A DNA stretch of 17,398 bases. Origin: a virus. Its lineage: Duplodnaviria; Heunggongvirae; Uroviricota; Caudoviricetes. The number at the start of each line of letters is the position of its first letter. Within the stretch, counting starts at the first letter, position 1. The notes under the pieces are model-generated. The model did no database searches, was not told where the DNA came from, and was given only the letters and a program-made list of their open reading frames with translations. Both the position numbers and the translations under genes were made by a program. Location: positions 1-17,398 of IMG/VR virus record IMGVR_UViG_2778261177_000007, one strand, 5' to 3'. Shown here in pieces: positions 2,597-7,109 of the stretch.

Positions 2597-2751
2597 ACCG
2601 CCTCCCGTTTATTATTTATCTTCTCAGCCAGCCGCTGTGCTTTCAGTGGATTTCTGATAACAGAAAGGCCGGGAAATACCCAGCCTCGCTTTGTAACGGA
2701 GTAGACGAAAGTGATCGCGCCTACCCGGATATTATCGTGAGGATGCGTCAT
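2569..2751 (-). CDS. Lambda orf60a-like small protein
   Basis: ORF in the position of lambda orf60a; starting at the third codon ([15 protein letters not shown]...) gives 60 aa and the 4-nt overlap with exo seen in lambda. The ORF track's longer version starts at 2757. Confidence 0.6.
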
Positions 2752-3428
2752 CGCCATTGCTCCCCAAATACAAAACCAATTTCAGCCAGTGCCTCGTCCA
2801 TTTTTTCGATGAACTCCGGCACCATCTCGTCAAAACTCGCCATGTACTTTTCATCCCGCTCAACCACGACATAATGCAGTCCTTCACGCTTCATACGCGG
2901 GTCATAGTTGGCAAAGTACCAGGCATCTTTTCGTGTCACCCACATGCTGTACTGCACCTGGGCCATGTAAGCCGACTTTATGGCCTCGAAACCACCGAGC
3001 CGGAACTTCATGAAATCCCGGGAGGTAAACGGGCATTTCAGCTCAAGGCCATTGCCGTCACTGCATAAACCATCCGGAGAGCAGGCGGTACGCATACTTT
3101 CGTCGCGATAGATGATCGGGGATTCAATAACATTCACGCCGGAAGTGAACTCAAACAGGGTTCTGGCGTCGTTCTCGTACTGTTTTCCCCAGGCCAGTGC
3201 TTTAGCGTTAACTTCCGGAGCCACACCGGTGCAAACCTCGGCAAGCAGGGTGTGGAAGTAGGACATTTTCATGTCAGGCCACTTCTTTCCGGAGCGGGGT
3301 TTTGCTATCACGTTGTGAACTTCTGAAGCGGTGATGACGCCGAGCCGTAATTTGTGCCACGCATCATCCCCCTGTTCGACAGCTCTCACATCGATCCCGG
3401 TACGCTGCAGGATAATGTCCGGTGTCAT
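2748..3428 (-). CDS. exo: Lambda exonuclease (Red-alpha)
   Basis: 226-aa product recognised by eye as near-identical to phage lambda Exo ([37 protein letters not shown]...); 4-nt overlap with bet as in lambda. Confidence 0.95.
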
Positions 3429-4210
3429 GCTGCCACCTTCTGCTCTGCGGCTTTCTGTTTCAGGAATCCAAGAGCTTTTACTGCTTCGGCCTGTGTCAGT
3501 TCTGACGATGCACGAATGTCGCGGCGAAATATCTGGGAACAGAGTGGCAATAAGTCGTCATCCCATGTTTTATCCAGGGCGATCAGCAGAGTGTTAATCT
3601 CCTGCATGGTTTCATCGTTAACCGGAGTGATGTCGCGTTCCGGCTGGCGTTCTGCAGTGTATGCAGTATTTTCGACAATGCGCTCGGCTTCATCCTTGTC
3701 ATAGATACCAGCAAATCCGAAGGCCAGACGGGAACACTGAATCATGGCTTTATGCCGTAACATTCGTTTGGGATGCGACTGCCACGGCCCCGTGATTTCT
3801 CTGCCTTCGCGAGTTTTGAATGGTTCGCGGCGGCATTCATCCATCCATTCGGTAACGCAGATCGGATGATTACGGTCCTTGCGGTAAATCCGGCATGTAC
3901 AGGATTCATTGTCCTGCTCAAAGTCCATGCCATCAAACTGCTGGTTTTCATTGATGATGCGGGACCAGCCATCAACGCCCACCACCGGAACGATGCCGTT
4001 CTGCTTATCAGGGAAGGCGTAAATTTCTTTCGTCCACGGATTAAGGCCGTACTGGTTGGCGACGATCAACAATGCGATGAACTGCGCATCGCTGGCATCA
4101 CCTTTAAATGCCGTCTGGCGAAGAGTGGTGATCAGTTCCTGTGGGTCGACAGAATCCATGCCGACACGTTCAGCCAGCTTCCCTGCCAGCGTTGCGAGTG
4201 CTGTACTCAT
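3425..4210 (-). CDS. bet: Lambda Bet (Red-beta) single-strand annealing protein
   Basis: 261-aa product recognised as near-identical to lambda Bet ([66 protein letters not shown]...). Confidence 0.95.
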
Positions 4211-4215
4211 CCGCT

Positions 4216-4512
4216 TTATACCTCTGAATCAATATCAACGTGGTGGTGAGCAATGGTTTCAACCATGTACCGGATGTGTTCTGCCATACGCTCCTGAAAC
4301 TCAACATCGTCATCAAATGCACGAGTAATGGCTTTTTTGCTGGCCCCGTGGCGTTGCAAATGATCGATGCAGAGTGATTCAAACAGGTGCTGTGGAAGAC
4401 CTTTTTCCATGTCGTCTGCCAGTTCTGCCTCTTTCTCTTCACGGGCGATCAGCTGGTAGTGACGTGCCCAGCTCTGAGCCTCAAGACGATCCTGAATGTA
4501 ATAAGCGTTCAT
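4216..4512 (-). CDS. gam: Gam, RecBCD inhibitor (short GamS form only)
   Basis: 98-aa product matching the C-terminal 98 residues of lambda Gam ([19 protein letters not shown]...VDIDSEV). The upstream long-form N-terminal coding sequence is present but out of frame and truncated. Confidence 0.9.
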
Positions 4513-4587: not shown

Positions 4588-4878
4588 TTAGTGATTCAGG
4601 CCGTTACCGCGTCCGTCGAGAAAAACTTCCACGAGCAAATCACGGGTATAAGTGCGCTCGATGCCGCGATGCAGATATAGCCGTCCGCGTAAATTAGCTG
4701 ATGCAGTCCAGGTACCATCTTTGTGTTTGACCAGCATTCCTGGCATGACCGCACCTCGATTAACGGTCTGCGTTCCGTAATGTTGATGAACCATAAAAAC
4801 TCCTGCCCGTAAGCTGGGCTGCTGAACATATAGAGACTTCTGCGCGTATTCAGGCGGTGGATGGCCGCCGGTTGTCAT
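4588..4878 (-). CDS. Hypothetical protein, first ORF downstream of the putative pL (in the N/kil/cIII position)
   Basis: 96-aa ORF with ATG start and a GAGG about 10 nt upstream. No recognisable family and no N-like arginine-rich motif. A competing 77-aa ORF (4596..4829) in another frame lacks an SD. Confidence 0.4.
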
Positions 4879-5049
4879 AACTAAGCCGCCTCGTTGAAGC
4901 GACTAAGGTATGAAATGTTGAGTTGATTTCAGCTGGTCACACCGACGTTCACGCGTCCGTTTCACCCCTCGCACTCCCCGAAGCCTGCTGAAATTCAAAC
5001 TGCGGATCTAAGCGGTCATCGCAACGGTGAATCAGGTAGTTGCCGTATC

Positions 5050-5130
5050 GTTGTGTTGTTGCGATGAACTTATTTAAAACTATAGTTGTTTTATCGTCAA
5101 CAACAAAAGTTGTTTTATTGGTTGTTTTAG
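5050..5130 (-). promoter_or_regulatory. Putative pL promoter with oL-like operator repeats
   Basis: On the minus strand: -35 TTGACG (rc of 5095..5100), 17-bp spacer, -10 TTAAAT (rc of 5072..5077). Embedded in GTTGTTTTA / CAACAAC repeats. A roughly 30-bp module (TTGTTGA..AAAACAAC.ATAGTTTTAA) is shared with the pR side. Confidence 0.45.
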
Positions 5131-5238
5131 ATATAACTGGTTGTATTTAGGATGGATTTATTTTGTGACTTGAATCGCATAGCGATAACTGAAGCGAGGT
5201 TATGGTGGTTTTTTTAACGGTGTGTGTGATGAGGGGAG

Positions 5239-5268
5239 GGCAAAAGAAAACCCGGCACGGTGACCGGG
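5239..5268 (-). terminator. Intrinsic terminator downstream of the repressor gene (tImm-like)
   Basis: Minus-strand RNA CCCGGUCACCGUGCCGGG forms a GC-rich stem and is followed by UUUUCUUUUG. Lies about 120 nt after the repressor stop, between the repressor and the pL/oL region. Confidence 0.65.
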
Positions 5269-5389
5269 ATTCTTACGCCGTTAGGTAAAGATATTATTGC
5301 GGTGGCTTAATATTACTACCTAGAGCAAAGATAGGAATTAGTTCTTTACTGAATGAGCACAATGCCCAGTTGATAATTTTTAATTGGTA

Positions 5390-6079
5390 CTACCCATGCT
5401 TCCTATATGTCTGCGGCATGCTCCCAATAACCTTACCGAAGATGAACACCCGGTTCATCTCGTCTTTCTCGATCGGGTCCCACGGTGAGTAGCTTTTGTT
5501 ATCAGAGATGACCAGCAGCTTATCCTTCATCATTTGCAGGCGCTTTACATGGGCTGTGTCGTCGTACAGAAACGCATAGATACCATCACCGTCGAAAGAT
5601 TTAACTGTGATATCAACGAACAGCAGATCACCTGGTTCGATCGTTCCTGACATGCTGTCACCACGCACGTTAATGATGCGGATATTTTCCGCCTTCCTAC
5701 CATCGAACATGTGACGAGCATCGTCAAACGAGTACTCAACCGAGCGTAGAACTTCTACAAACTCACGGTTGATGACTCCCGGCCCAGCACTGACTTCTAT
5801 ATCAAGAACGTCAATCTTGAAGTATTTGGAATGGCTGACAGTTGATTGTATTGGTTGCACTGTACTGTCTGACATATTTCCAACGCCAGAAGATAACCAT
5901 TCTGCGCGCACACCCAAAGCGTTCGCGATCTCCACGATTTTAGTTGTTTGATTAGCTTTCCCTGTTTCGATTTTCTGAATAGCAGCCTGGCTAACCCCGA
6001 CCAAATCCCCAAGCGCCTTTTGTGTAAGGCCTCGCGCTAATCTGGCTTCTTTAAGTCTTTCTGAGAGTGTTGTTTTCAT
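5390..6079 (-). CDS. cI-like phage repressor (N-terminal XRE-type HTH, C-terminal S24 LexA-like peptidase domain)
   Basis: HTH segment LTQKALGDLVGVSQAAIQKIETGK; Ala-Gly autocleavage-type site (VSAGPG); S24 motifs (VRGDSMSGTIEPGDLLFVD, ...HVKRL). Start set at the internal ATG 6079 (MKTTLSERL...); the 251-aa ORF-track version from 6145 would begin inside the operator palindrome. Confidence 0.85.
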   Translation of the reverse strand: MKTTLSERLKEARLARGLTQKALGDLVGVSQAAIQKIETGKANQTTKIVEIANALGVRAEWLSSGVGNMSDSTVQPIQSTVSHSKYFKIDVLDIEVSAGPGVINREFVEVLRSVEYSFDDARHMFDGRKAENIRIINVRGDSMSGTIEPGDLLFVDITVKSFDGDGIYAFLYDDTAHVKRLQMMKDKLLVISDNKSYSPWDPIEKDEMNRVFIFGKVIGSMPQTYRKHG

Positions 6080-6183
6080 AGTCCAAATGTACAACCAAGG
6101 TTTTATTTCATCAAACGAAAATGGTTGTTGATTAAAAACAACCATAGTTTTAATCTTGATTCAAATTAACCACGGAGGTTGTT
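6080..6183. promoter_or_regulatory. oR-like operator region with divergent pRM/pR promoters
   Basis: Perfect 8-bp-arm palindrome ATGGTTGT-N9-ACAACCAT at 6121..6145 and a second ACAACC..GGTTTT site at about 6093..6108. Putative pR: -35 TTGATT, -10 TTTAAT, then the GGAGG SD of the cro-like gene. Confidence 0.5.
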
Positions 6184-6414
6184 ATGAACCCAGCTATCAA
6201 AACAGCGATCAATATCGTTGGTTCACAAAAGAAACTGGGCGCTGCTTGCGAAGTTTCACAGCAGGCCGTCTATAAGTGGCTTCACAACAAAGCAAAGGTA
6301 TCCCCTGAACATGTCGGCAGCATTGTTACGGCTACTGGTGGAGTAGTGAAGGCATACCAGATTCGCCCGGATCTTCCGAAGTTGTTTCCACACACCGAAA
6401 AGAACGCAGCTTAA
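6184..6414 (+). CDS. Cro-like / YdaS-family HTH regulator
   Basis: 76-aa ORF divergent from the repressor, GGAGG SD 6 nt upstream of ATG, HTH-like segment (QKKLGAACEVSQQAVYKWLH); occupies the cro position. Confidence 0.8.
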   Translation: MNPAIKTAINIVGSQKKLGAACEVSQQAVYKWLHNKAKVSPEHVGSIVTATGGVVKAYQIRPDLPKLFPHTEKNAA

Positions 6415-6426
6415 ATTTCCATTTCA

Positions 6427-6439
6427 CGCTCTTTAACAA
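6427..6439 (+). promoter_or_regulatory. boxA-like antitermination element at the nutR position
   Basis: CGCTCTTTAACAA lies 13 nt after the cro-like stop; matches the rrn/lambdoid boxA consensus (TGCTCTTTAACAA) at 12 of 13 positions. No convincing boxB hairpin follows. Confidence 0.5.
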
Positions 6440-6483
6440 TAAGCAATCAACTTAACAGTCAATTCAAACTAAAGGAGTCAATT

Positions 6484-7023
6484 ATGCAACCACTTACATA
6501 CCAACAGACTAGCGGATTTAGCCCGACTGCGGTGATAAATCGTTCTCAAACAAAACAGGCGCCAGGCCACGAAAAAATCCGTGATGCCGTTCGCGCCTGG
6601 TCGGCTGCAGATAATCAGGATGTTGTTGCCGCACTCATTGTGAATGAGTATCGGGAGCAGGGCGGCGGCACCATCGATTTCCCTGATGATGTCAGCCGTG
6701 CACGCCAGAAGCTGTTCCGCTTCCTCGATAACAAATTCGATTCTGAAAAATACCGAAATAACGTGCGTGAACTGACCCCGGCAATTCTGGCGGTACTACC
6801 GCTGGAATATCGCGGCCACCTGGTTGAGCAGGATAGCTTCATGGCTCGGCTGGCTGAAATGGAAAAGGAACTCAGTGAGGCAAAACAGGCTGTCATTCTC
6901 AACGCACCACGCCACCAGAAACTGAAGGAGATGAGTGAAGGCATTGTGTCGATGTTTCGTGTGGACCCGGATCTGGCTGGTCCACTGATGGCGATGGTCA
7001 CCACCATGCTGGGGGCAATATGA
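6484..7023 (+). CDS. YdaT-family protein (cII-position regulator)
   Basis: 179-aa ORF with AAGGAG SD; motifs NEYREQGGG and LTPAILAVLPLEYRGHLV resemble Rac-prophage YdaT-family proteins (recall); sits in the cII position after cro. Confidence 0.65.
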   Translation: MQPLTYQQTSGFSPTAVINRSQTKQAPGHEKIRDAVRAWSAADNQDVVAALIVNEYREQGGGTIDFPDDVSRARQKLFRFLDNKFDSEKYRNNVRELTPAILAVLPLEYRGHLVEQDSFMARLAEMEKELSEAKQAVILNAPRHQKLKEMSEGIVSMFRVDPDLAGPLMAMVTTMLGAI

Positions 7024-7109
7024 CAGGTTCGGAAATGGCGAAAGCCGGTCTGCGCGAACAGAACCGACTTTCAGGTGCAAATCGTAACACACTCATTGCG
7101 GGAGGAATT

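Follow-up and report, generated by a model that had tools for sequence, protein, structure and literature searches.

A set of putative 434-like operators at the probable immunity switch of a lambdoid Escherichia coli prophage

We analysed a 17,398-nucleotide (nt) stretch of DNA (the window; IMG/VR record IMGVR_UViG_2778261177_000007), which is the early region of a lambdoid Escherichia coli prophage. Between the leftward and rightward operons lies a leftward gene whose open reading frame (ORF) matches the Pfam families HTH_3 and Peptidase_S24. The segment from 5040 to 6183 is very probably the immunity (lysis/lysogeny) switch of the prophage, with a repressor, Cro, CII and 434-like operators of 14 base pairs (bp). 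From the ORFs, Pfam matches and RefSeq context, the layout is the lambdoid CI/Cro/CII one: the repressor gene diverges from cro–cII, O and P lie downstream, and a recombination/kil operon lies on the opposite side. An earlier reading of the bare sequence (the original prediction) had placed a prophage immunity region here, and gene order and protein families bear this out. Its gene assignments also stand, as the Pfam matches give a repressor with HTH_3 and Peptidase_S24 domains, a Cro-like member of the YdaS family and a member of the YdaT family. The coding features of the switch (lengths in amino acids, aa; HTH, helix-turn-helix) are the following:

5390 to 6079, minus strand: cI-like repressor, 229 aa, at the RefSeq start (Pfam HTH_3, 4.9e1 bits; Peptidase_S24, 67 bits).
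5960 to 5998, within the repressor gene: recognition region GVSQAAIQKIETG, aa 28–40 of the protein, in an N-terminal 434-like HTH.
6184 to 6414, plus strand: Cro analogue, 76 aa, with an HTH of the YdaS / P22-Cro type (Pfam YdaS_toxin, 62.2 bits; P22_Cro, 22.8 bits).
6484 to 7023, plus strand: CII analogue, 179 aa, YdaT family, phi80-CII type (Pfam YdaT_toxin, 103.7 bits).

On either side of the repressor gene, the left (oL) and right (oR) operator regions carry the following sites and putative promoters:

5072 to 5100, minus strand: putative pL, with –35 TTGACG at 5100–5095, a 17-nt spacer and –10 TTAAAT at 5077–5072.
5076 to 5089: OL1, AAAACTATAGTTGT, in the pL spacer and –10; exact match to the 14-bp pattern, with arms invariant in 71 related loci and kept in Providencia and Erwinia.
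5100 to 5113: OL2, ACAACAAAAGTTGT, abutting the pL –35 and 24 bp from OL1; exact match.
5119 to 5149, minus strand: two lone ACAACC half-sites upstream of OL2, with cores at 5121–5125 and 5140–5144.
6086 to 6114, minus strand: putative pRM, with –35 TTGATG at 6114–6109, a 17-nt spacer and –10 TACATT at 6091–6086.
6091 to 6104: OR3, ACAACCAAGGTTTT, inside pRM between –35 and –10; exact match, conserved in four genera, with arms invariant in related loci.
6115 to 6128: OR2, ACGAAAATGGTTGT (ACGAA-AATG-GTTGT), abutting the pR –35; right arm consensus, left arm degenerate, a weaker call.
6121 to 6145: the 8-N9-8 palindrome of the original prediction, which links the right half-site of OR2 to the left half-site of OR1 across the pR –35.
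6128 to 6156, plus strand: putative pR, with –35 TTGATT at 6128–6133, a 17-nt spacer and –10 TAATCT at 6151–6156.
6138 to 6151: OR1, ACAACCATAGTTTT, within the pR spacer and reaching the first base of the –10; exact match.
6169 to 6182: possible fourth site, ACCACGGAGGTTGT (ACCAC-GGAG-GTTGT), 31 bp from OR1, with the cro Shine-Dalgarno GGAG at its centre; one mismatch.

To judge from the sequence, the operator unit is probably a 14-bp site with two 5-bp arms around four bases (5-N4-5), A(C/A)AAC-N4-GTT(G/T)T, and not ATGGTTGT-N9-ACAACCAT. When all ACAAC cores in the window were listed, every well-conserved one was seen to face an inverted partner at a distance of exactly four bases. In 17.4 kb, AMAAC-N4-GTTKT is matched exactly four times where 0.09 matches are expected; none of 200 shuffles reached this count, and all four matches fall in the two control regions, overlapping the putative promoters. 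With at most one mismatch there are seven matches, six of them in the control regions (p = 2.5e-11). The three that carry a mismatch lie at 6169–6182 on the cro ribosome-binding site (RBS), at 5103–5116, where an offset match overlaps OL2, and at 9863, an intragenic match of the kind due to chance. A 17-bp reading, AAAAC-N7-GTTTT, was rejected: neither OR3 (which has TGTAC) nor the other genera fit its left arm, and ACAAC-N4-GTTKT is exact there.

The half-site itself had been recognized correctly. The original prediction proposed matching operator–promoter modules at pL and pR built on ACAAC(C)/GGTTGT, and both of the strings it quoted are found in full; an inverted repeat of 19 nt relates 5074–5092 to 6135–6153 (95% complementary). 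The window has 16 copies of GGTTGT where 9.5 are expected (a count equalled or exceeded in 8 of 200 shuffles), and the half-site search over the window placed 6 of these 16 in 5040–5150 plus 6080–6183, that is, in 215 bp or 1.2% of the sequence (binomial p = 2.6e-8). This clustering at the control regions supports ACAAC(C)/GGTTGT as the repeated recognition element.

A tblastn search with the repressor N-terminal domain (N-domain) returned phages of three further genera in which the recognition region is retained: Klebsiella ST101-KPC2phi6.1, Providencia PSTCR7lys and Erwinia phiEt88 (VGVSQAAIQKIETG, or VGVSQANIQKLENG in Erwinia; shared form VGVSQA(A/N)IQK(I/L)E(T/N)G). The same operators occur in the same order in all three, with an invariant N4. 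The blocks of the cI–cro intergenic alignment are OR3, OR2 with the –35, and OR1, and the DNA between them differs (for example, TTTCAT versus TAGCGG). OR2 is 24 bp from OR3 and 23 bp from OR1, and the block CAAACGAAnATnGTTGTTGA is identical in the four genera. At oL, Providencia and Erwinia have a module downstream of cI with two exact sites before a TTGACA-type –35, and the 24-bp spacing of OL1 and OL2 recurs there (Providencia 2804/2828, Erwinia 2616/2640). Both also have comparable lone half-sites at oL. In the window, the two lone half-sites beyond OL2 possibly represent a degenerate OL3; among related loci, 5121–5125 is freely polymorphic and 5140–5144 almost invariant. At the position of the possible fourth site, Providencia has an exact ACAAC-GGAG-GTTTT, Klebsiella has ACTAC-GGAG-GTTGT, and Erwinia has lost the left arm; the call is tentative because the site overlaps RBS constraints.

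These comparisons bear on the operator that the original prediction had drawn at oR. The palindrome ATGGTTGTTGATTAAAAACAACCAT is indeed exact at 6121–6145, is the only match in the window even at three mismatches (0.12 expected), and holds an ATG in each arm, on both strands. Read as the operator (with GTTGT-N10-ACAAC as its counterpart at pL), it would be bound by one dimer or a tetramer straddling the –35. This reading agrees with its perfect 8+8 match and its uniqueness, and with the fact that, in the window and in every relative examined, the –35 of pL as well as that of pR lies within an inverted GTTGT…ACAAC pair. However, the gap between the arms is 9 bp at pR and 10 bp at pL, 9 or 10 bp between genera and 8–10 bp among 80 near-identical E. 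coli loci from IMG/VR, while N4 is fixed, and the outer ATG/CAT bases are unconserved (Klebsiella has ACAACTAA). Nor does the long palindrome account for OR3, the conserved GTTTT arms, the left arm of OL2 or the regular spacing of 23–24 bp. Its half-site centres are 14–15 bp apart, compared with 9 bp for the 5-mer centres of a 434-like HTH dimer (PMC1636474), and relatives with other HTH sequences show 5-N4-5 palindromes. We therefore consider it unlikely to be the operator. Given the four exact sites and OR2 between OR3 and OR1, the palindrome is best read as two arms of neighbouring sites, the right one of OR2 and the left one of OR1, with the pR –35 between them, and its two ATGs are by-products: that on the plus strand opens a 4-codon ORF, and that on the minus strand, at 6145, is in frame with the repressor ORF (5390–6145, 251 aa).

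In natural domain swaps, the operators vary with the repressor HTH. The Erwinia repressor has a different C-terminal domain (C-domain; 33% overall identity), yet the same operators. Conversely, the repressors of Salmonella SPLA1b and Klebsiella ST11-VIM1phi8.2 have a closely similar C-domain (near-identical in SPLA1b) and a different HTH (VAQPTIWRL), and both phages have ATACG-CTTG-CGTAT, again 5-N4-5, at the OR3 position. The Stx-type phage PA28 (helix SQPAIQKM) has ATAAC-N4-GTTAT three times, at spacings of 24 and 25 bp, and its first site, like that of the window, begins 11 nt from the start codon of cI. We tried the operators of phage 933W as a match for the PA28-type sites and rejected them, as 15-bp sites of a different type. 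Together, the swaps indicate that operator sequence follows the N-terminal HTH and that the 5-N4-5 geometry is a property of the family. The Cro protein changes alongside the motif in these swaps, with 63–80% identity in the three phages with the same operators versus 46% in SPLA1b, so Cro may be a co-reader of the sites. SPLA1b also has a cognate half-site, ATACG, just upstream of the cro start and beside the Shine-Dalgarno, which parallels the site at 6169–6182.

Variation among close relatives gave a second view of the same sites. An IMG/VR scan with the N-domain alignment returned 80 loci, all 99–100% identical and thus informative on polymorphism, not divergence. In the related loci analysed for polymorphism, 0/50 operator-arm positions are polymorphic, compared with 33/159 other positions (combined Fisher p = 8e-5); the arms contribute 0/30 versus 8/74 at oR and 0/20 versus 25/85 at oL. 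One-bp indels were seen in the OR2–OR1 spacer.

The recognized element could instead be a direct repeat, TAAAACAACC, bound head-to-tail, or by Cro or YdaT alone, or by a host factor. Four ACAAC copies in the same orientation at oL (5085, 5109, 5121 and 5140) suggest this, as does the extended half-site (A/T)AACAACC(A/T), which is better conserved than the GTTTT arm; CP-933P, moreover, is reported to mix direct and inverted repeats (PMC8630535). We find this reading improbable: the copy at 5121 is the freely polymorphic one, each well-conserved copy has its inverted partner at exactly N4, the copies alternate in orientation at oR, and the motif changes with the repressor HTH in the natural domain swaps.

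The repressor is consistent with the 14-bp sites. The best solved match of its N-domain is the 434 repressor (1per_L, E = 4.5e-9, residues 5–68 against 2–65, 64 residues), followed by 434 Cro. In 434 co-crystal structures, Gln28, Gln29 and Gln33 read the outer operator bases. The alignment with the 434 repressor keeps Gln28 (Q31 here) and replaces Gln29 with Ala and Gln33 with Lys; the loss of Gln29 would fit the tolerance of A or C at operator position 2. The C-domain has S24/LexA-like motifs, SAGPG at aa 97–101 (Ala-Gly), GDSM at aa 140–143 (Ser) and VKRL at aa 178–181 (Lys), from which SOS induction by self-cleavage would be expected.

RefSeq gives the repressor two starts, one of 229 aa (‘S24 family peptidase’, WP_000858975.1) in some genomes and one of 251 aa (‘XRE family transcriptional regulator’, WP_061336284.1) in others. 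The 251-aa form begins at the ATG at 6145 inside the palindrome. The resulting 22-codon extension crosses the operators, is broken by 1-bp indels in 2/80 related loci and is absent in the other genera, whose repressor genes start at MKTTL, which on sequence evidence makes the 229-aa start the credible one.

The layout of the putative pR is conserved in the four-genus alignment, and the pL hexamer layout in the Providencia and Erwinia phages. At pR, 78/80 related loci have TTGACT as the –35, closer to consensus than the TTGATT of the window; the window copy may carry a promoter-down variant. The cI start codon follows pRM closely, its A (6079) being the 7th nt beyond the –10, and lacks a Shine-Dalgarno; on these grounds, the cI transcript is predicted to be leaderless. 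The Klebsiella phage has the same pRM layout (TTGCCG, N17, TAAATT, 6 nt, ATG), and lambda cI and CP-933P paaR2 provide precedents for leaderless mRNA (PMC8630535). The centre of OR2 lies at about –42.5 relative to the predicted pRM start. A pRE could not be deduced from phi80, as the cro–cII intergenic DNA does not align, and we therefore propose neither a pRE nor a CII site.

Several observations weigh against the 14-bp operators and the promoters assigned to them. OR2 fits the pattern at only 8/10 arm positions, and since its left side, which is conserved, overlaps the pRM –35, the promoter rather than the repressor may account for its conservation. In the fuller listing of 80 loci, one has a change at 6115, in the weak left arm of OR2. 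For oR on its own, the polymorphism test was not significant (p = 0.10). The two arms of the sites differ consistently (ACAAC on the left, GTTTT on the right), so the true half-site may be longer, TA(C/A)AACCA, and the four same-orientation ACAAC copies at oL also permit a direct-repeat reading. A simple sigma-70 consensus scan calls none of pR, pL and pRM, so the promoter positions rest on layout and conservation, and the pR –10, TAATCT, is weak. In the literature, we found no binding, footprint or transcription data for this immunity type.

The two genes to the right of the operators belong to families whose names suggest another function. The YdaS_toxin and YdaT_toxin scores are both above the Pfam cut-offs, and RefSeq calls the second product a ‘toxin YdaT domain-containing protein’. 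On that basis, the YdaS and YdaT genes might form a toxin–antitoxin or toxin–repressor module in the style of racR/ydaS/ydaT, with the repeats as its autoregulatory operator. Yet the genes occupy the exact cro and cII positions between the S24 repressor and O/P, the YdaT protein is 67% identical to phi80 CII over its full length (179 aa), and isolated, viable phages carry the module. CP-933P YdaS and YdaT act as Cro and CII, not as a toxin–antitoxin pair (PMC8630535, PMC9986795, PMC5917428), and the literature counts against toxin–antitoxin function for the Rac and CP-933P homologues (PMC5917428, PMC8630535). A toxin module of this kind is accordingly very unlikely. The YdaS-type protein has a prophage Cro (3bd1), not 434 Cro, as its best solved match. 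In the Klebsiella phage, this repressor and Cro occur together with short ‘CII family’ proteins of the lambda type; such pairing with different CII types is ordinary lambdoid mosaicism.

The switch that these features suggest would work as follows. A dimer of the 229-aa repressor would bind the 14-bp A(C/A)AAC-N4-GTT(G/T)T operators through its 434-like HTH, perhaps cooperatively. With OR3, OR2 and OR1 spaced 24 and 23 bp, repressor at OR1 and OR2 would shut off cro–cII–O–P transcription; by analogy with lambda and 434, the repressor would activate its own leaderless transcript from OR2 and hold it in check from OR3. OL1 and OL2, 24 bp apart, would cover pL in the same geometry, shutting off kil–gam–bet–exo. 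The YdaS-type protein would act as Cro on the same sites, and the YdaT-type protein as CII. SOS-activated RecA would trigger repressor self-cleavage at Ala98-Gly99, leading to induction.

There is some chance, though we hold it doubtful, that the arrangement is one not described for lambda, 434 or phi80, in that a fourth operator lies on the cro Shine-Dalgarno (6169–6182) and OL consists of two full sites plus conserved lone half-sites. If true, repressor or Cro would also act downstream of the pR start, and the long-range interplay between OL and OR would be unlike the 3+3 octamer model of lambda.

The closest parallel to the operators is phage 434, whose sites are 14 bp long with 5+5 contacted and 4 central base pairs (reference site ACAATNNNNATTGT; PMC1636474). 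Shared features are the homologous repressor N-domain, 14-bp operators of 5+4+5 that begin ACAA, three OR sites and an S24-type repressor, here predicted to be inducible. The outer ACAA…TTGT is exact only at OL2, and the other sites have AAAA or TTTT in one arm. The main difference from the reference site is at position 5 of the operator, which is C here, not T, G or A; position 2 tolerates A. Unlike in 434, two of the three base-contacting glutamines are replaced, Cro is of the YdaS/P22-Cro type and no paralogue of the repressor N-domain, CII is of the YdaT type, and OL shows only two full sites. As the outer bases of OL2 match the 434 consensus, the two repressors might partly cross-recognize each other’s operators.

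In gene order, the parallel is phi80, in which an S24 cI diverges from a YdaS-like Cro, followed by a YdaT-family CII and O- and P-like genes. The YdaS score of phi80 Cro (29.8 bits) is just below the cut-off, and Pfam YdaT_toxin matches phi80 CII. In phi80, pRM and pR are annotated at the same positions relative to three operators, and pL is annotated too. However, the repressors are 24% identical and Cro aligns over 26 residues only; given this distant relationship, the specificities differ. The operators annotated in phi80 have a length of 19 bp and spacings of 24 and 33 bp, and the cro–cII intergenic DNA is not conserved. The original prediction had regarded the pairing of an S24 repressor with YdaS/YdaT as neither the lambda nor the Rac arrangement. 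That is correct, but the pairing is that of the classical phage phi80 and is extremely common.

CP-933P of E. coli O157:H7 also has a bistable lambdoid switch in which YdaS is Cro and YdaT is CII, with matching operators at pR/pRM and at a distal pL and with a leaderless repressor mRNA (PMC8630535). Its repressor, PaaR2, described only as a CI-like regulator that octamerises (PMC8630535), is followed by the paaA2–parE2 toxin–antitoxin pair, whereas the window has an S24 repressor with an empty slot downstream. The CP-933P operator motif is GTTTAGTAA-based and 18 bp long, and the window YdaT is only distantly related to that of CP-933P (E = 2.4e-4). A search for the CP-933P-type YdaT operator, TTGATT-N6-AATCAA, between cro and cII gave a best match at 6433–6450 with 3 mismatches, and this candidate was dropped. 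The only exact match to that operator in the window is a perfect 18-bp palindrome, TTGATTATGAATAATCAA, at 14241–14258, followed at about 14275–14299 by a hairpin with an 8-bp stem, CACCGGAG-N9-CTCCGGTG; given the distance between the two YdaT proteins, the match may be a coincidence.

Two further systems share parts of the design. Rac, known here from the literature, likewise has a divergent repressor gene facing YdaS- and YdaT-family genes in a lambdoid prophage (PMC5917428), but the window repressor has an S24 self-cleavage domain and 434-like operators. Phage 933W has five natural sites (three OR, two OL) and an S24-type repressor modelled on 434 (PMC3317979); its 15-bp sites, by contrast, have a central base pair and differ in sequence, and its repressor binding is reported to be non-cooperative (PMC3317979).

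The genes and signals flanking the switch are the following:

2748 to 3428: exo, leftward.
3425 to 4210: bet, leftward.
4216 to 4512: gam, leftward.
4588 to 4794, minus strand: kil-like cell-division inhibitor gene (RefSeq annotation of a 99.6% identical relative).
5251 to 5268, minus strand: intrinsic terminator-like hairpin, CCCGGTCACCGTGCCGGG, then the T-run TTTTCTTTTG, downstream of the repressor gene.
7020 to 8039: O, rightward.
8036 to 8737: P, rightward.

The rightward genes begin at 6184 with the YdaS-family gene. The leftward genes comprise integrase, excisionase and the recombination genes, the kil-like gene being the first of the pL operon, followed by gam, bet and exo (Pfam Gam, RecT and YqaJ matches on the downstream ORFs). 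Between pL and kil (4795–5070) we found no N-like antiterminator ORF and no ORF of convincing size. A nut/put-like RNA or N gene in the pL leader of about 270 nt (4795–5065) was rejected, with no convincing ORF, no Rfam match and no surplus of predicted folding (z = 0.10).

The slot between the repressor stop and oL (5150–5390), about 280 bp, is empty in the window, with no ORF of at least 40 aa between the stop at 5390 and oL. Its length varies between about 280 and 1910 bp in the 80 near-identical loci, and in relatives the slot contains GevT/GevA, RexA/RexB or a ParA-like gene. It resembles a hotspot for cargo or defence genes, the counterpart of lambda rexAB.

Between P and the nin region (8987–13975) lie a gene for a 1302-aa inverse autotransporter (intimin/invasin-like; IAT_beta and Big_1 repeats) and a convergent BD-FAE alpha/beta hydrolase gene; this position is variable, as one related prophage has a SIR2-family gene there. 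Further right, a match to the Hfq-binding small RNA isrC (135 bits) lies at 15890–16012 on the minus strand, and an IS3-type transposase ORF with HTH_Tnp_1 at 16332–16631. Similarity to the best related prophages stops at 14824, suggesting that the right part of the window was rearranged or received an insertion.

The switch is of an ordinary, typical lambdoid kind with a phi80-type CII, is widespread, and is present in viable phages. At least 80% of the 2.2-kb module is found in 1243/5426 complete E. coli genomes, and some part of it in 2229/5426. Near-identical prophages lie in other strains at the argU/intD site and beside icd. The isolated phages PhiR34_1 (99.0%), PhiR47_2, IdasGreatGrand and Turner also carry the module, with its genes annotated as cI, Cro and cII.

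We found no published paper that defines the operators of this immunity type, and literature searches on phage names, including PhiR34, and on GevT returned nothing relevant; with no published operator map found, the locus is a new example of a known switch type. The finding is of modest importance and leaves the understanding of lambdoid switches unchanged. A confident operator map would aid the prediction of superinfection immunity groups for prophages of E. coli, Klebsiella, Providencia and Erwinia, decide between the two repressor start codons in RefSeq (229 versus 251 aa), and permit the design of inducible-promoter parts. The domain swaps, in which the same C-domain is joined to a different HTH with different operators, and the reverse, illustrate modular specificity in 434-like repressors.

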